IMG/VR virus record: IMGVR_UViG_3300048014_000057
Location: 32,001 to 96,000 of that record
DNA from: a virus
Length of the DNA: 64,000 bases
Strand: one strand, 5' to 3'
How positions within the stretch are numbered: the first letter of the stretch is position 1; every line of letters starts with the position of its first letter. Positions 29,978 to 47,537 of this stretch are shown in pieces. The position numbers were made by a program, and so were the translations under genes. The notes below the pieces were generated by a model. The model was not told where the DNA came from and made no database searches. It was given only the letters and a program-made list of their open reading frames with translations.

Positions 29978-30277
29978 TTACAATTCTGTTTCTACTGTTT
30001 CTTGATTAACATTTCTAATTTTAAATTCAAGAATTGTACTATCAATTCTAAATGACAAAATAAAAAAATTTAAATCAATATAATATTGATTATTATTAGT
30101 TTGGTCACAAAAAATAAAAATAGTACCATTATAGTCTAATTTACTAACAAATTTTTTAAAATGGTCTCTTACTTTTTTTCTTGTTTCTTCGTTATTATTT
30201 TCAAGAAAAACATCATCTGGAAAATACGATTTTACCTCACTTTTGATAAGATTAATTACATTATTTTTATTTAACAA
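29978..30277 (-). CDS. small protein resembling the tail sheath (gp18) C-terminal domain
   Basis: FLENNNEETR...FCDQTNN....ID.N.F compared with sheath FE.ND..TR...VCDETNNT..VIDRNEF. Confidence 0.5.
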   Translation of the reverse strand: MLNKNNVINLIKSEVKSYFPDDVFLENNNEETRKKVRDHFKKFVSKLDYNGTIFIFCDQTNNNQYYIDLNFFILSFRIDSTILEFKIRNVNQETVETEL

Positions 30278-33026
30278 TTTTACTAAATCCTTTCTCTTTT
30301 TTAAATTCGATTATATTTTCTATTCTATCCTTATTTTTTTCATTATGAGAAATAATAAACACATTTTCATCCTTTGTCAATCTTTTTAAAATATTAAGGT
30401 AAGAATCTATTCCATCTGCATCCATACTACCATCAAGAGTTTCATCAAAAATAAGTAAATTTGTATCGAGTGAATTTCTTCTTTTTGCCACTTCTCTGAA
30501 AGTAAAGAGAAGTGCCAAATTAATTCTCATTTTTTCTCCTTGACTAAAAGACTGAAAAATATGTTCATCACGATATCTAGATTTTATAACTTCATTAAAA
30601 TTTTCATCTACTGTAAATTGACAAATAAAATCCATTTCAAGAAGAAATTTATTTATTAATTCATTAATCACTTCAATATATTGTTTAATAATAGAAGCCT
30701 TGACTCCATCATCTCGAAGAAGTTTAAGTAATATATTCATATTTTCTTTTTGAATTACTAAATTATCATAATTTTTAATATAATTTTCAAGAGAATTTTG
30801 TAATTGTAAAATTTCTTCTGTTTTATCTTCCACATTTTCATTTTTAAAAGAATTAATTTTTATTTTTAATTCATTAGCAAGAGAAGTAATATTTTTTAAT
30901 TCATATAAAATTAAATCAATTTTAGAATTAACTTCTTTCATGGATTTAATAGAATCATTAAATTTATCAATTTCTAATTCTAATTTATCATATGTTCTTT
31001 GGTATATTTTTACCTGATCTAAATTATGAGTATGTTGTATCCTTTTTTCTTGTATAATAATATCCTTAAAAGTTTCATCAATATTTTGATTACATACATT
31101 ACAAACACACGTATTTTCATAATAATACATTTCTTTTTCTAGTTTTTTATTTTCAAGTTTTAAATTATTAATATCACTTCCAAGTTTATAATAAAGTGAT
31201 TCTTTAGTTTTTAATTCATCTTCTATTTTAGAAGTATCAAATTTTTCTGGTATATTCTTCTTTTTTAACAAATATGATTTTCTGTATTCCTCTAATTTTT
31301 CTTCCATTTCTAAAATTTGTTTTTGATTATCTTCTTTTCTTTTTTTATTATATTCTTCCAATAATTTGATTCTATTTTTTAAAGTATTTTGTTCGGTTCT
31401 TAATTCATAGATATTTTTTTCATTATCTTGAATTCTTTTTTTAAGTATTAAATTCATAGAAGAAAATATTTCAAGATCAAGTAAATTTTCTACTATTTTT
31501 CTTCTATCTGGTAAAGGAAGTTCTAAAAAAGGAACATACGAAGCCGAACCCAAAACACAAACTTGACAAAATGCCTTATGATTAATATGAAGAATATTTT
31601 CTTCTAAATATTTTTGATAATCATCTTGGTTTGTATTATTCAATAATACATTATTTTTATATATTTCAAATTTATTAGGTTTTATACCTCTAATAATCTT
31701 ATAAAAATCTTGTCCTATGGTAAATTCTATTTCCACCAGACAATTTTTCTTTGTCATTGAATTAACCAAAAGAGATAAAGTTACTTTTCTAAATGGTTTT
31801 TTAAACAAACAAAAACAAAGAGCATCAAGACAAGTCGAATTATGAGTTACAACATAATTATCAGTTACATATAACTGAGAAGGATGATCAATAGAAATAC
31901 ATTTAACAATTTCTTTTTCAATTTTTTCAATTTTTTCAATTCTTAAACGTAAAGAATCTTTATATTGATAATTTTTACATCTTTCTTTTTTTCTAGATAA
32001 TGAAAATAACTCAGATGGATTTTTATATCTAATATTTAATTGATATGATAATCTTCCTTTCTTTTTTATTCCTTTATTTGTAAAGGAAGGATTTTTTTCT
32101 GAAATTTTACAAATACCACCAATAGAAAATATTAATTCTTGTATATCTTTGGCTAATTCATAACTTGTTGTTGAATAAGAAATAGAACCGTTTCTATCAG
32201 CAGTTCCATCTGTATCCATTAAACCACGTAATAATTCTATTTTTTGATTAAAAGAAATATTTTTATATAATTCTGGAATATTTTTTTCCCAGGATCGTTT
32301 TCCATATAAATTTAATTTTTTTAATTCTTCTTTAAATATGTGTTTTTCATATTTAATACCATAATTAATTCTATAAGAACATCTTGTTTGAACTTTTGAT
32401 AAATGTAATTTTACAATCCTAGGACAAGTAAAATCAAGAATATTTCTTACTTTATTTAATAATTCTTCATCTGTATTTGTTATTGTTACATTACTACTAG
32501 TAAATGATCCATCACCAATTAAAACACCTAATAAATAAGGATTAATTGGTAAATCTACATCTTTTTTTATAAAATTTTCTGCTTCAAAAAGTTGAATAAA
32601 ATGATTATCAGTAAAATTACCTAATGAATTTTCTTTTTCTTTTAAAATTTCTAAAAGAGATAAAATTTTCCATTGCCATTTTGATTCAAAATATCCCCAT
32701 ACTCTAAAAAGATGGTTTTCCCCACATTTAACTTTTCTTCCATCTTTAAATGTAATTTCATATACATTTTCTTCTCCGATAAATGGAATATCAATTACTT
32801 TTGATATATCTCCATTAGCAGATACAATTTCATCTCCAATTTTTATATTACCAATAGTATTCCATCCTAAAGGTGTTAGGATTTTTGAATATAATGGTTG
32901 TGCTTTACCAGCACCATTTATACCAACAATAAGTGAAATAGAATTTTCGTTTAATTTTATTTCTGTCCATTGATTACCAGATGATAAAAAATTCTGGTAA
33001 CGAATAGTATTAAATATTATTTTCAT
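30267..33026 (-). CDS. gp46: recombination endonuclease subunit gp46 (Rad50-like), intein-containing
   Basis: NFLSSGN, G.NGAGK|S, CNVC zinc hook, SFSQGEK.RI.LAL, DETLD, ISH. Confidence 0.96.
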   Translation of the reverse strand: MKIIFNTIRYQNFLSSGNQWTEIKLNENSISLIVGINGAGKAQPLYSKILTPLGWNTIGNIKIGDEIVSANGDISKVIDIPFIGEENVYEITFKDGRKVKCGENHLFRVWGYFESKWQWKILSLLEILKEKENSLGNFTDNHFIQLFEAENFIKKDVDLPINPYLLGVLIGDGSFTSSNVTITNTDEELLNKVRNILDFTCPRIVKLHLSKVQTRCSYRINYGIKYEKHIFKEELKKLNLYGKRSWEKNIPELYKNISFNQKIELLRGLMDTDGTADRNGSISYSTTSYELAKDIQELIFSIGGICKISEKNPSFTNKGIKKKGRLSYQLNIRYKNPSELFSLSRKKERCKNYQYKDSLRLRIEKIEKIEKEIVKCISIDHPSQLYVTDNYVVTHNSTCLDALCFCLFKKPFRKVTLSLLVNSMTKKNCLVEIEFTIGQDFYKIIRGIKPNKFEIYKNNVLLNNTNQDDYQKYLEENILHINHKAFCQVCVLGSASYVPFLELPLPDRRKIVENLLDLEIFSSMNLILKKRIQDNEKNIYELRTEQNTLKNRIKLLEEYNKKRKEDNQKQILEMEEKLEEYRKSYLLKKKNIPEKFDTSKIEDELKTKESLYYKLGSDINNLKLENKKLEKEMYYYENTCVCNVCNQNIDETFKDIIIQEKRIQHTHNLDQVKIYQRTYDKLELEIDKFNDSIKSMKEVNSKIDLILYELKNITSLANELKIKINSFKNENVEDKTEEILQLQNSLENYIKNYDNLVIQKENMNILLKLLRDDGVKASIIKQYIEVINELINKFLLEMDFICQFTVDENFNEVIKSRYRDEHIFQSFSQGEKMRINLALLFTFREVAKRRNSLDTNLLIFDETLDGSMDADGIDSYLNILKRLTKDENVFIISHNEKNKDRIENIIEFKKEKGFSKIVK
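31839..32903 (-). mobile_element. intein (355 aa) with LAGLIDADG endonuclease, Ala1 start
   Basis: GK|AQPLYSKILTP...YLLGVLIGDG...LRGLMDTDG...VKCISID...VVTHN|S; inserted in Walker A. Confidence 0.93.
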
Positions 33027-41985: not shown

Positions 41986-42372
41986 ATGTTATGTCTTGGT
42001 GATTCAATTGCTACTTATCAGGGTCTTGGTGGGGTTCTACATTGTTCTGAAATTAGAGCTATAAAAGGTAAACCTTCTTCTTTTATTATAGAAGAAGCCA
42101 GGAAATCAGGAAATAATGAAATTTGTATTGTTTCTGCTGGTTCTAATGATCCCTTTAATATAGCTTTAGAAAAAAATTTAAAATCTATTAGATCAAATTT
42201 AAAATGTAAAATAATTGTTTGGGTACAGCCTGCAAATAATCGTGCCGGGAGTATTGTCAAAAAGGTGGCATTGGAATATGGTGACAAAACCGTGAAGGTT
42301 ATTCCCGGCAAAGATCATGTTCATCCTTTTAGTTATTCTGATCTTGCTAGGGATATTAAATCTAAACTCTGA
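41986..42372 (+). CDS. minimal SGNH hydrolase
   Basis: LGDSIA, SAGSND, DHVHP. Confidence 0.75.
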   Translation: MLCLGDSIATYQGLGGVLHCSEIRAIKGKPSSFIIEEARKSGNNEICIVSAGSNDPFNIALEKNLKSIRSNLKCKIIVWVQPANNRAGSIVKKVALEYGDKTVKVIPGKDHVHPFSYSDLARDIKSKL

Positions 42373-42385
42373 AAAGGAATTTAAT

Positions 42386-42613
42386 ATGTTCAAAAGAAAC
42401 ATATCAATGAAATTTAGAGACATAAAAAAAGAAATTACAATAAAAGGATGGATAGAACAAAGAATTAGTGGTGGTCATGCTATTTTTTATCATCCATTTA
42501 GAAATGATAAAATTGTTATTCCTGTACATTGCGGGGATATAAATTCTATTATTGTAAGAAAAATTTTAGAACAATTAAATGGACGTTCAACTGTTAATGG
42601 AAAATTAATTTAA
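42386..42613 (+). CDS. hicA: HicA-family toxin (dsRBD-fold RNase), no HicB seen
   Basis: K.RDI.K.....GW...R..GGH..F.HP.....IVIP.H..DI......KIL.Q. Confidence 0.8.
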   Translation: MFKRNISMKFRDIKKEITIKGWIEQRISGGHAIFYHPFRNDKIVIPVHCGDINSIIVRKILEQLNGRSTVNGKLI

Positions 42614-42784
42614 TGAAAATTTCAATTGTAAATATTAAAAATAATTATATTAGAAGAACTTTACTTATTTTATTAATGATTATTTTTATTCCTGTATATT
42701 TTTTATATTATTTCTCTTTTGCTTTACTTGAAACTTATGAAAGTATAAAAGACGATTTTAATTATGTATGGAAAGTAAAATAAA

Positions 42785-43933
42785 ATGTTTCCTAAAATTG
42801 AAACCATATTTGATATTCTACCTCATATTGAAGGAAAAGATAATTTTACAGTTAATTATAAAGATGATTATATTGTTGTAAATTATATTCTTAATACTCC
42901 GGAATATTTTAATAATCCATGGGAAAAAGAATGCCGTGGATTAATTTTTGATAAAGATGGCAATATCATGTCACGCCCTTTTCAGAAATTCTTTAATATT
43001 GGTGAACGTGAAGAAACAAAAATTGAAAATATTGATTTTTCTAAACCACATTGGATTTTAGAAAAGGTAGATGGAAGTTTTATAAGGTCAATTATTACTG
43101 ATGGTAAATTAACTTGGGCTTCCAAAGCAGGAATTACTTTCCTTACACCTATGGTTGAAGAATTTGTAGAAAAAAATAAGCAATATTATACTTTTGCTGC
43201 TGTAATGATGAATCATGGTTTAACTCCTATTTTTGAATTTTGTTCTAGAAAAAATAAAATTGTTATTGATCATCCTTTTGATAGATTAGTCCTTTTAGGA
43301 ATAAGAGATAATATTACAGGTAAATATCATGATTATGAATTATTGCAAGATTTTTCTAGAATGTATAATATTGAACTTGTTAAACAATATTATCTTAATG
43401 ATCTTTCTCTAACAGAATTATTAGAATTAGCAAAAAAATTAACAAATCAAGAAGGATTTGTTATAAGATTTGAAGATGGAAATATGATTAAGTTAAAAAG
43501 TGAAGAATACTGTCTTCTTCATAAATCTAAAGAAGAACTTCATTTTGAAAAAAATGTAGTTTCTATTATTATTGAAGATAAAGCAGATGACTTTCGAGTT
43601 CTTCTATCAAAAGAAGATAGAGAAAAATTTGAAGAATTTGAATATAAATTTTGGAAAAATTTCGAAGAATATGTAATGGATATTTATAATTTACATTACA
43701 TATATAATATTTCTAAAATTTCCAGAAAAGATTTTGCTTTGTTATCTAAAGATTGGAAATATAAATATCATAGATCAATTTTATTTACATTTTTTGATAA
43801 AATTGATTTTTCTATTGTTGAAAGTAAAAAAGAATTATTAAATATTCTTAGAAAAAATCTTGGAACACAAACATCAATAGATAAAGTAAGAGAAATTTGG
43901 GAAGGTAAAGAAAAATTAAAATGGAATTATTAG
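42785..43933 (+). CDS. rnlA: RNA ligase 1 (RnlA-like)
   Basis: ECRGLIFD, SRPFQKFFN.GE, EKVDGS, FEF...N.IV, EGFV, K.KS.EY. Confidence 0.93.
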   Translation: MFPKIETIFDILPHIEGKDNFTVNYKDDYIVVNYILNTPEYFNNPWEKECRGLIFDKDGNIMSRPFQKFFNIGEREETKIENIDFSKPHWILEKVDGSFIRSIITDGKLTWASKAGITFLTPMVEEFVEKNKQYYTFAAVMMNHGLTPIFEFCSRKNKIVIDHPFDRLVLLGIRDNITGKYHDYELLQDFSRMYNIELVKQYYLNDLSLTELLELAKKLTNQEGFVIRFEDGNMIKLKSEEYCLLHKSKEELHFEKNVVSIIIEDKADDFRVLLSKEDREKFEEFEYKFWKNFEEYVMDIYNLHYIYNISKISRKDFALLSKDWKYKYHRSILFTFFDKIDFSIVESKKELLNILRKNLGTQTSIDKVREIWEGKEKLKWNY

Positions 43934-43976
43934 AATAAATAGAAATATTTCTCTTTTAAAAATTATAAGGAAAAAA

Positions 43977-44432
43977 ATGACTAATTATACAAATACATTT
44001 AAACTTTTAATATTAAATATTTTTATAATTTCTTTACTTGTAGTTAATTATTTTTATGGATATATATCATCTTTTTTTACAGATGATATTACACATATTT
44101 CATATTTTCTTACATTTATTATGGGAATAAATGTTATTTTAGAAATTTACCAAACATATAGAAATGAAAAAAAATATTATGTTCTACAAAAATCAGAAAA
44201 TTTTATTACGAAATATCTCCAATATATTGTAGGACAACTTTTTTATATTGGGCTTTTAGGTACAGTCATTGGAATGGGTCATATGTTTAAATCCATTCAA
44301 AATATAAAAGATGTAGATCAAGTTCTTAAAATTGTTTCAGAAGGCGGACTTACATTATTTAATACAACTATTATTGCGTTATTTTCATATTTATGGACAA
44401 GATTTAATTCATTTATTGGAAATGGTGAGTAA
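43977..44432 (+). CDS. MotA/TolQ/ExbB proton-channel family membrane protein
   Basis: IGLLGTVIGM, G..T.FNTT; four hydrophobic segments. Confidence 0.75.
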   Translation: MTNYTNTFKLLILNIFIISLLVVNYFYGYISSFFTDDITHISYFLTFIMGINVILEIYQTYRNEKKYYVLQKSENFITKYLQYIVGQLFYIGLLGTVIGMGHMFKSIQNIKDVDQVLKIVSEGGLTLFNTTIIALFSYLWTRFNSFIGNGE

Positions 44433-45039
44433 TTTGAAAAAAATTAAAACAGATGAAATTCTTTTTGGTATAGCTTTTGCAGATGTTTTAATTTCTTTTT
44501 CTGCATTTTTATTCATGCTTTTTATTCTTTTTGCTATCCTTCCCCATAAAAAAATGGATACAGAAGCGGTTAATGATAATGATAAGTTAGGAAAAGTGTG
44601 TGCAGAATTAATATGGGATAATAACAGAGACGTAGATTTAGATTTATGGGGTCAATCTCCTGTTGATAAAAAACCCGTTGGTTATTCTAATATGCATGGA
44701 AATGGTTTAGATTTATATAAGGATGTTACTGGTTTTACTAATAATCTAGAACATTTAAATATGGAAGTTATGTGTGCCAATAAAACTTATCCAGGAGAAT
44801 GGACGTTTAATGTTTCTTATTTTTCTGATCATGGTAGATTAGACCCTAATAATAAACCCGATATCAATGCAACTTTATTTGTAAAGATTTTTAAAGAAGG
44901 TTCTTGGAAAGTTTTAAAATCACAACATTTATTTACCTATGAAAAAGAAGAAAAAACAATGTTTGATTTTTTTATTGGAGAGAATGGGCTTTTGGAAGAA
45001 AATTCTATTAATTCAGTAGATAAACCTCTTAGAAATTAA
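44422..45039 (+). CDS. MotB/ExbD-like single-TM protein with periplasmic W...DVDLDLW domain
   Basis: AFADVL in the TM segment (conserved Asp); WDNNRDVDLDLW; PGEW..NV. Confidence 0.6.
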   Translation: MVSNLKKIKTDEILFGIAFADVLISFSAFLFMLFILFAILPHKKMDTEAVNDNDKLGKVCAELIWDNNRDVDLDLWGQSPVDKKPVGYSNMHGNGLDLYKDVTGFTNNLEHLNMEVMCANKTYPGEWTFNVSYFSDHGRLDPNNKPDINATLFVKIFKEGSWKVLKSQHLFTYEKEEKTMFDFFIGENGLLEENSINSVDKPLRN

Positions 45040-45051
45040 AGAAAGAAAAGA

Positions 45052-45552
45052 ATGTTTTATTATCCTAATGTATCCTTTACTACTCTTCTTTTTGTGTTTT
45101 TAGGAGTTGCTTTTTTTTGTAGAAAAGAATTAAGATTATACATTTTATTAATTTGTATAGTATATACTTTTATTTTATATACATCCATAGCCGAATTATT
45201 AGGTAGGCCAAAACCAATTAATAATTATACTCCATTTTATTCTTTTCATTATACAAAAGATCAAAAAATACCACTTTTACATGCAGTAGTAAAAGATAAT
45301 ATTATATATCTATTATTACAAGAAGATACAATTAAATTATATTCAATTCCTTATAATCAAAATTTTGCAGATGAATTAAATAAAGCCTTGACAAAAACAA
45401 ATGGTAAATTTGATGGTTTATTTTTTGGAATGAGTGTATCTAGTATCGGTGGTGGTTCTCATGTTCTAATGGCGTCTCCACAAAAAGATTTATCTGTTCC
45501 TAAATTAGATACAAATACAGAAGGAAATATAACAGACTATGGAAATCATTAA
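45052..45552 (+). CDS. two-TM membrane protein, third gene of the cassette
   Basis: Two hydrophobic helices, then LLGRPKP, IYL, YSIPY. Confidence 0.6.
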   Translation: MFYYPNVSFTTLLFVFLGVAFFCRKELRLYILLICIVYTFILYTSIAELLGRPKPINNYTPFYSFHYTKDQKIPLLHAVVKDNIIYLLLQEDTIKLYSIPYNQNFADELNKALTKTNGKFDGLFFGMSVSSIGGGSHVLMASPQKDLSVPKLDTNTEGNITDYGNH

Positions 45553-45941
45553 TGTTTTTTAATAAGCATGTAAAATGTATAGATAATAAAAATAAACCTA
45601 TTTTAAAAATTAATTCAATTTATACAGTTATTTTATGTGTTTATATGGAAAATGTAGAATTTTATAAATTAAAAGAAATTAAAAATTTGCTTTTTGAATC
45701 TTGGAGATTTATGGAAGTGCCCAAACCAGGATATTCTATGTCTCCTTTTTTAGGAAAATCTGTGGATTGGAAAGCACAATATCATTCCGAAGAAATTAAA
45801 AAAATTGCCTAATTTATCTTAGGGTTAATGTAAATAGGTATATTCCGAGGGGTACTTTTAGGTTGACTAAATAGGACTTTATGATATGATCTTTCTCACG
45901 AAAGGAGATTTACACTCTCTTCGTAGAAACCTAAAAAAAGG

Positions 45942-46852: not shown

Positions 46853-47206
46853 ATGAAAAAACGTATTTTGGTTTGTGGTGGAAGAGATTATAATCCTAAT
46901 AAAGTTTATAAATTCTTAGAGAATAAACTAGATCATCTTGCTATATCTGAAATTGTAATTATTCAAGGTGGTGCCTAAGGAGCAGATTTTGGTGCCAAGC
47001 AATTTGCCATTGATTATTCTATTGAAATGGAAGAATATAAAGCTAAATGGGATAAGTATGGTAAATCTGCTGGTCCTATAAGAAATAAAAAAATGTTGGA
47101 TGAAGGAAAACCTGATTTAGTTTTTGCATTTCCGGGCGGCCCTGGTACAAATAATATGATTAAACAAGCAAAAGAAAAAAACATTTTAATATACAATATT
47201 AAATAA
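46853..47206 (+). pseudogene. DUF2493/YspA (SLOG) protein with in-frame TAA at 46976
   Basis: RILVCGGRDY...IIQGGA*GAD...A.W..YGK.AGPIRN..ML...KPDLV.AFPGG.GT..M. Confidence 0.85.
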
Positions 47207-47312: not shown

Positions 47313-47537
47313 ATGATAAAAATTGAATTTGATATAGAAGGATTTAAGAAAAAAATAAATCATTTAATGGATAAAAATATTGACTTATTGGATGCAATCA
47401 TTACAATAGCCGATAGAGAAAATATAGAGTTAGAAACTTTAATTTTAGTCTTAAAAAAAGATCAAGAATTAAAAGGAAAATTAGAAAAAATAGGAAATAA
47501 TCTTAGAATGTTAAAAAATCCTGAAAAAAATAAATAA
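47313..47537 (+). CDS. gp33: late transcription coactivator gp33
   Basis: LDAI...D.ENIE.ET...LK.KLE....L.ML; directly upstream of gp32. Confidence 0.7.
   Translation: MIKIEFDIEGFKKKINHLMDKNIDLLDAIITIADRENIELETLILVLKKDQELKGKLEKIGNNLRMLKNPEKNK

Follow-up and report, generated by a model that had tools for sequence, protein, structure and literature searches.

Background

The protein pairs MotAB, ExbBD, TolQR and ZorAB form ion-driven rotary motors, and motors of this class, with a 5:2 subunit stoichiometry, power flagella, Ton-dependent uptake, the Tol-Pal system, gliding, type 9 secretion and Zorya defence. The pore-helix threonines of ExbB are T148 and T181. Here we describe a three-gene membrane cassette (the trio) in a 64,000-nucleotide stretch of viral DNA (the window), which covers bases 32001-96000 of the 144,859-bp IMG/VR virus record IMGVR_UViG_3300048014_000057 and stems from an uncultured T4-like phage. 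An earlier reading of the window from its letters alone (the original prediction) had taken the cassette for a phage-encoded MotA/MotB- or ExbB/ExbD-like set. We conclude that the three proteins probably form one inner-membrane, stator-type complex of the MotA/ExbB/TolQ kind, in which the periplasmic head is new and an accessory protein takes part.

Unconventional pairings of TolQ-like proteins have been predicted before. In one group of predicted motors, an Asp-bearing 'transpore helix' (TPH) is joined to a vWA head and paired with a TolQ-like gene, the partners forming heterologous pairs (PMC12204202). That report (Mol Biol Evol 2025) does not mention TerD or DUF2135, and the word 'phage' occurs in it twice, both times with reference to Zorya defence. 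A survey of MotAB relatives describes 'generic ion transporters' with assorted DUF appendages, and the terms TerD, DUF2135 and Azospirillum are absent from it. In the literature, we found no description of the trio or of a phage-encoded MotA/ExbB-type motor.

The channel subunit

The trio comprises three genes on the same strand, as follows.

43977-44432, plus strand: gene 1 (P0001, 151 amino acids), predicted minimal MotA/TolQ/ExbB-type channel (A) subunit, called from Pfam and hhalign
44422-45039, plus strand: gene 2 (P0002, 205 amino acids), B-subunit-like axle protein with an Asp21 helix, a short linker and a TerD/DUF2135-like head
45052-45552, plus strand: gene 3 (P0003, 166 amino acids), putative accessory third subunit with a hairpin of two helices, followed by a small domain and a tail that is disordered

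Gene 1 carries both of the channel-helix motifs that the original prediction had named, GLLGTVIG (as IGLLGTVIG at residues 90-98) and NTT (residues 129-131). Over residues 78-122 it matched the Pfam family PF01618 (MotA_ExbB) with 29.7 bits, the gathering score being 22.9, and in a whole-genome scan the same family scored 29.4 bits. Cellular and Rhizobium-phage copies of gene 1 scored 35.2, 45.5 and 23.0 bits, and weak NCBIfam matches of gene 1 were to TolQ and ExbB, including the 138-position exbB2 model. A family profile built from 12 gene 1 homologues was compared with Escherichia coli TolQ using hhalign, which aligned 58 columns at 33% identity (88% probability, P 3e-6), with IGLLGTVIG opposite IGLFGTVWG of TolQ and the second T of NTT opposite the T of IATA. 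T96 of gene 1 is thereby placed on TolQ T145 and T131 on TolQ T178, the pore threonines of TolQ. Residues G92, G95, T96, G99 and T131 are invariant in the 12 homologues, and in a wider set of 94 phage and cellular copies the three glycines are present in all 94 and T96 in 89.

Judged by its sequence, gene 1 is a channel subunit of the MotA/TolQ/ExbB family, and the family assignment that had been proposed for it held on two counts, namely a Pfam score above threshold and a TolQ alignment that keeps both channel threonines. Four hydrophobic segments can be read in the protein, with a cytoplasmic loop of only about 20 residues between them, so gene 1 would lack the cytoplasmic domain of MotA, ExbB, TolQ and ZorA. 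The length of gene 1 across the family is 151-260 amino acids.

The aspartate helix and the beta-sandwich head

The ATG of gene 2 lies at 44422 and gives an 11-nt overlap with gene 1. The protein has a single transmembrane segment bearing AFAD, as had been claimed: the motif occupies residues 18-21, within the sole strongly hydrophobic segment, and the WDNNRDVDLDLW stretch follows at residues 65-76. Asp21, the residue likened at the outset to the proton-binding Asp of MotB, is invariant in 14 close homologues, and among 150 family representatives the position is D in 133 and E in 5. When compared with E. coli TolR and ExbD using hhalign, Asp21 fell on TolR D23 and ExbD D25, the helix alone being aligned. 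The helix segment of a 150-sequence profile matched only two PDB sequences, both sub-threshold: 8vvi_A (E 0.13), labelled 'MotB-like N-terminal domain', and 8qyd_F (E 0.31), deposited as 'Membrane protein', which we take for the ZorB chain of a Zorya ZorAB complex. With a 14-sequence profile, no PDB sequence was matched. P0002 had no PHROG or PADLOC match, and neither P0002 nor its 13 close homologues matched a Pfam or NCBIfam model at E<=1.

An exhaustive profile search for the gene 2 family returned 1277 representative clusters at E<=1e-3, with 669 at E<=1e-10. The representatives listed are about 180-260 amino acids long and were mostly matched over nearly their full length, and clusters of metagenomic members are small and lie on short contigs.

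The AlphaFold2 model of gene 2, generated from the 150-sequence alignment (predicted local distance difference test score, pLDDT, 92.9), has a helix at residues 10-39 and a beta-sandwich at residues 59-185, joined by a short linker that is modelled with low confidence. In fold comparisons of the head using VIA-align, the best matches were TerD 2qz7_B (Z 9.2, root-mean-square deviation 4.0, 133 residues aligned) and 2kxt (Z 8.2, 130 aligned), the next match having Z 6.3, and Foldseek returned TerD entries at E 3.5e-3 to 1.5e-2. Distant members of the gene 2 family scored 22.4 (P0040), 20.1 and 16.1 bits against Pfam DUF2135, for which the cut-off is 22; P0002 itself gave no match. The W-x6-D-x-D-L-W stretch resembles a Ca2+-binding jelly-roll domain of the Tk-SP protease (E 0.03, sub-threshold; Z 5.7). 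A Ca2+ site in the head is suggested by the invariant acidic residues D72, D74, D101 and E115, and the head is probably metal-binding.

Taking the Asp alignment, the model and the fold matches together, gene 2 looks like a B-type axle helix carrying a TerD/DUF2135-like head, and not like a protein of the ExbD, TolR or OmpA type. The expectation of a periplasmic domain other than an OmpA-like one is thus upheld by a modelled beta-sandwich for which TerD is the best match. As a separate observation, the head domain also occurs without the Asp-helix inside open frames of about 960-1300 amino acids in other Pseudomonadota (7 matches in 6 genomes: G244, G201, G256, G154, G364 and G314).

The third protein

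Gene 3 was modelled with pLDDT 80.5, having helices at residues 3-21 and 28-51, strands and a helix at residues 73-126, and a tail with pLDDT in the 50s. Two transmembrane segments followed by a C-terminal domain, as first described for this protein, are therefore borne out by the model. Its architecture is that of a hairpin with a positively charged loop inside, an LLG(R/K)PKP motif (here LLGRPKP), a beta-beta-beta-alpha domain and a proline-containing tail. The gene evolves fast, with 18-36% identity among positional homologues, while this architecture is kept. A word-based homologue search with gene 3 found only the query itself, and homologues were consequently taken by position and with a local hidden Markov model. 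Those carrying the gene 3 motif come after gene 2 in both phage and alphaproteobacterial loci. Fold searches gave matches for the hairpin only and none for the small domain, and searches of Pfam, NCBIfam and PADLOC returned no match for gene 3.

Distribution and phylogeny

None of the three proteins matched a PHROG. Against cultured phage records, neither blastn with the cassette nor tblastn with P0002 produced a match, and the sole match of P0001, in a dCMP deaminase, was due to chance. The search with P0040, a more typical member of the family, retrieved 21 cultured Rhizobium and Sinorhizobium phage records. In Rhizobium phage RHph_N34, gp145 (MotA_ExbB, 23.0 bits) corresponds to gene 1 and gp146 to gene 2, and gp147 has the gene 3 architecture. 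In the temperate phage 16-3, the trio is represented by p038, p040 and p042, with small extra open reading frames (ORFs) between them. All of 12 related viral contigs hold the trio or the pair in the same order, end-truncated remainders included, and the trio or its remainder comes after rnlA in those with a long enough upstream flank.

A related phage, IMGVR_UViG_3300050010_000458, has a 232-amino-acid ORF between genes 1 and 2 (L003:3319-4017), which parts the normally overlapping pair. The three NUMOD3 motifs and GIY-YIG-like N-terminus of this insert identify it as a Seg-type homing endonuclease.

Bacterial genomes were scanned at one genome per species, and at least 584 loci with the pair or the trio were found. 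The best 80 are all from Alphaproteobacteria and include Azospirillum isolates, Skermanella, Arenibaculum, and Stellaceae, Xanthobacteraceae and Geminicoccaceae metagenome-assembled genomes. In alphaproteobacterial loci, the MotA_ExbB score of gene 1 is 21.6-45.5 bits, and an overlapping gene 2 and then gene 3 come after it. Of 109 fetched loci, 102 have genes 1 and 2 side by side on one strand, and in 84 a gene 3 was detected with local hidden Markov models; exceptions to the trio order are mostly contig ends. The three-gene order is conserved in phages and bacteria, and the gene neighbourhoods bear out the three-gene arrangement that had been read from the window. When the flanking ORFs of the 80 bacterial loci were clustered, the only recurring neighbours reflected local synteny (such as YajQ and hemerythrin in Azospirillum), and the trio is self-contained in that no other neighbour is conserved. 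The view of the trio as a phage invention has to be given up, since the same self-contained cassette is present on the chromosomes of many Alphaproteobacteria. An even sample of 401 Pseudomonadota genomes held 13-15 with full-length gene 2, and the head-only matches noted above come from this sample too. Several Azospirillaceae have two paralogous cassettes, among them Azospirillum tabaci (on one scaffold) and A. isscasi.

Phylogeny was inferred by a quick search with a midpoint root. The copies of aquatic T4-like phages formed one clade (Shimodaira-Hasegawa-like approximate likelihood ratio test support 95), apart from the alphaproteobacterial clade, and the 16-3 and N34 copies branched elsewhere, beside cellular rows. 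This placement suggests that the phage copy is old and has been vertically retained in the aquatic T4-like group, and that more than one transfer between phage and host has taken place.

Proposed working of the complex

In the stator-type complex that we propose, gene 1 would form a ring of channel subunits, a pentamer, around a dimer of gene 2 helices, a 5:2 arrangement suggested by analogy with MotAB, ExbBD and TolQR. Inward-moving protons would pass T96 and T131, Asp21 would be protonated and then deprotonated, and the proton flow would turn or rock gene 2 against the gene 1 ring. Given that gene 1 is predicted to be without a cytoplasmic domain and that the linker of gene 2 is short, output is expected in the periplasm near the membrane, where the TerD/DUF2135-like head would deliver the work. 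The periplasmic domain and flexible tail of gene 3 may act together with this head, and its hairpin probably docks on the ring. Gene 3 is the obvious candidate to pass the work on.

Several observations weigh against this model. The family match of gene 1 spans only the last two helices, and the match of gene 2 to TolR and ExbD is weak (18-19 helix columns, P ~0.009), no ExbD, TolR, MotB or OmpA model having been matched by gene 2. The likeness of the head to TerD is at the level of the fold only, with 15-16% identity, and Ca2+ binding is a prediction. With so short a linker to the helix, the gene 2 head cannot extend unaided as far as the wall or the outer membrane. Both the stoichiometry and the geometry of Asp and Thr come by analogy only, and the data presented here indicate neither the target nor the benefit to the phage.

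Phage setting and neighbouring genes

The features of the window that bear on the setting of the trio are listed below.

42785-43933: RnlA RNA ligase, directly upstream of gene 1
43934..43941, plus strand: AATAAATA octamer, T4-type late-promoter-like motif, 35 nt 5' of the gene 1 ATG
45552-45812, plus strand: 86-amino-acid soluble ORF, its ATG sharing a base with the gene 3 stop (TAATG)
47313-47537, plus strand: gp33-like late-transcription coactivator (Pfam Trans_coact, 25.4 bits), just before gp32

The window has a G+C content of 26% and contains T4-type genes for the gp23 major capsid protein, a family B DNA polymerase, gp32, UvsW, the RnlA RNA ligase and the gp33-like coactivator. No cultured phage has a capsid protein more than 59% identical to the one encoded here, and its nearest cultured relatives are those of a Stenotrophomonas phage, cyanophages, Methylophilales phages and Sinorhizobium phiM phages.

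The late-promoter motif that the original prediction had placed ahead of the cassette is the octamer AATAAATA, which recurs 37 nt ahead of the gene for the gp23 major capsid protein. Its ATAAATA core shows no enrichment in the window, whose G+C content is 26%: there are 68 occurrences against about 95 expected, and the promoter call is for that reason plausible only. Late transcription of the phage trio is plausible on these grounds, and the gp33-like gene is consistent with T4-type late transcription in this phage.

The 86-amino-acid ORF after gene 3 had no Pfam family, and several of the related viral contigs have a similar ORF of about 88 amino acids, with an FYRLKEI motif, at this position. 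No counterpart turned up among the neighbours conserved around bacterial cassettes, and the ORF may be a fourth gene specific to the phages.

Other ORFs of the window are recorded here in their own right. Just 5' of rnlA in this lytic T4-like phage lies a HicA-toxin-like ORF (42317-42613, plus strand; Pfam HicA_toxin, 39.3 bits), next to which is a small hydrophobic ORF (42613-42783). A 919-amino-acid ORF on the minus strand (30267-33026) has SMC_N-type (gp46/Rad50-like) ends and two LAGLIDADG_3 matches near residues 261-313, and looks like the carrier of an intein or of an in-frame homing endonuclease insertion. At 46853-47206 on the plus strand, two short ORFs of 41 and 59 amino acids are parted by a stop or a frame change and read jointly as one small protein (…VIIQGGA / …GKSAGPIRNKKML…PGGPGTNNM…). 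Related phage loci hold an ORF similar to this pair, which may be a split or frameshifted gene.

Possible roles and alternative explanations

The roles that we can name for the trio, which are exclusion, lysis timing and envelope maintenance, are guesses. The trio might act at the envelope in the exclusion of other phages or in defence, a possibility supported by the patchy, mobile distribution of the cassette. To the same tentative degree, it might maintain the envelope or set the timing of lysis, a role supported by the late motif together with the stable chromosomal copies. Energising of uptake is a distinctly less likely role, and what probability remains is spread over other roles. Interference with the host's own motors, also raised by the original prediction, gains no favour from the data presented here. 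A Ton/Tol substitute and a passive lysis channel both rank below exclusion and envelope or lysis timing, as the following comparison of alternatives explains.

The alternative that survives best, although we consider it doubtful, is an anti-phage or superinfection-exclusion device of the Zorya kind, in which a MotAB-like sensor of the inner membrane would detect envelope damage by an incoming phage and block it, for example by depolarisation or by a block to DNA entry, and which phages would use to exclude competitors. Its patchiness in Pseudomonadota (about 13-15 of the 401 sampled genomes with full-length gene 2), its presence on chromosomes as well as in lytic phages and one temperate phage, the scattered branching of the phage copies in the tree, and the two copies in some Azospirillum genomes speak for such a device. 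The sole defence-library matches were likewise to ZorA channel motifs, and the entry that we take to be ZorB is among the sub-threshold PDB matches of gene 2. The ZorA matches, however, are sub-threshold in PADLOC for P0001 (E 0.15-0.53) and reach only 10-29 bits for cellular gene 1, where they cover the channel motif of about 60 residues alone, and gene 1 is without the long cytoplasmic tail. No ZorB model was matched by gene 2, and no nuclease or other effector gene is conserved beside the trio. The Azospirillum locus is syntenic and housekeeping-looking (hemerythrin, a CBS protein and YajQ), with no obvious defence island, and a late-promoter-like motif would be a poor fit for exclusion. 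Identification of the trio as a Zorya ZorAB proper was rejected in view of the gene 1 length of 151-260 amino acids, the missing ZorB match and the absence of a conserved effector neighbour.

An auxiliary energiser of the Ton/Tol type is improbable. Here the ExbBD or TolQR of the host would be substituted or reinforced by genes 1 and 2, with gene 3 in the part of TonB or TolA, so that outer-membrane transport or integrity is sustained. The order of an A gene, a B gene and a third membrane protein does mirror tolQ-tolR-tolA and exbB-exbD-tonB, TolQ is the best profile match of gene 1 (beside its weak NCBIfam matches to TolQ and ExbB), and the third protein does have a periplasmic domain, together with a tail that contains proline. 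Yet gene 3 possesses two helices, shows neither a conserved His nor an SHLS-type motif and matched none of the Pfam and NCBIfam families listed; with neither the single helix nor the conserved His it was rejected as a TonB or TolA. The gene 2 head, a TerD-like sandwich, does not have the ExbD/TolR fold either.

About equally improbable, in our estimate, is a passive permeabilising or lysis-control set (holin-, antiholin- or pinholin-like) that shares only the channel-helix motif with MotA/ExbB. In its favour, the three membrane proteins are small, their translation is coupled and a late-promoter-like motif precedes them; one cellular gene 3 also resembles a phage holin family faintly, although at E 0.063 the match is far from reaching the cut-off. 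Against these stand the conservation of the gene 2 Asp and of the gene 1 Thr and Gly residues, as a coupled proton path predicts, and the large, well-folded periplasmic head with its invariant acidic residues. Stable chromosomal copies occur without lysis genes, and next to the trio the window has neither an endolysin nor a spanin gene. A link to T4 MotA and MotB was rejected, as these are unrelated transcription and DNA-binding proteins that share the names alone.

Returning to the stator-type complex, its fullest form is speculative and, taken as a whole, somewhat unlikely: the trio would be a distinct ion-driven envelope machine, whose axle bears a Ca2+-binding TerD-like head and in which a two-helix partner stands in for TonB or TolA. 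This machine would have been swapped repeatedly between Alphaproteobacteria and their phages, and would serve lytic phages for late control of the envelope, such as exclusion or setting the moment of lysis.

New output modules of ion-driven motors reveal how membrane energy is used outside the cytoplasm. The trio is very small, made up of a 151-amino-acid channel subunit, an axle whose head is of another type, and a third protein, and is found in several kinds of phage and in hundreds of bacterial species; it would be a compact model for the core mechanism of such motors. If our reading is true, viruses equip the host with a proton-powered envelope device of their own. Cultured carriers are available in Sinorhizobium phage 16-3, Rhizobium phage RHph_N34 and Azospirillum brasilense.

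Comparison with known systems

TolQRA and ExbBD-TonB resemble the trio in having an A subunit of PF01618, with the GLLGT and T motifs of gene 1 aligning on TolQ T145 and T178, a B-like partner with one helix and a conserved Asp whose gene overlaps the A gene, and a third membrane protein with a periplasmic part next in the operon. They differ from it in that the A subunit of the trio has 151 amino acids and next to no cytoplasmic domain, a TerD/DUF2135-like beta-sandwich serves as the head, the third protein is a two-helix one in which no TonB/TolA-like domain was detected, and the set is carried by phages.

The predicted TPH-vWA and TolQ-like motors likewise combine a TolQ-like gene with an Asp-helix protein that has a non-canonical head, occur with no ordinary tolR or exbD, and have a function that is not known (PMC12204202). 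Compared with these, the trio is distinguished by a TerD-like head, by having just one B-like gene, and by a third gene, conserved, whose product has two helices.

ZorAB is also a non-flagellar, MotAB-like pair tied to phage biology, and the channel motif of cellular gene 1 weakly matches ZorA. In contrast to ZorAB, the trio comes without a long ZorA tail, a ZorB-type peptidoglycan-binding domain or ZorC, ZorD or ZorE effectors, and its scores are far below the cut-offs.

The Ca2+-binding TerD and DUF2135 (YfaP-like) domains include the best fold matches of the gene 2 head, 2qz7 and 2kxt. TerD is a soluble cytoplasmic protein, whereas the head, at 15-16% identity, is predicted to be periplasmic and tethered to an Asp-bearing helix.

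The trio fails the B-head and third-component hallmarks of the Ton, Tol, Mot and Zorya systems, and as far as its sequences tell it shares with all four the A subunit and the logic of the Asp-helix.

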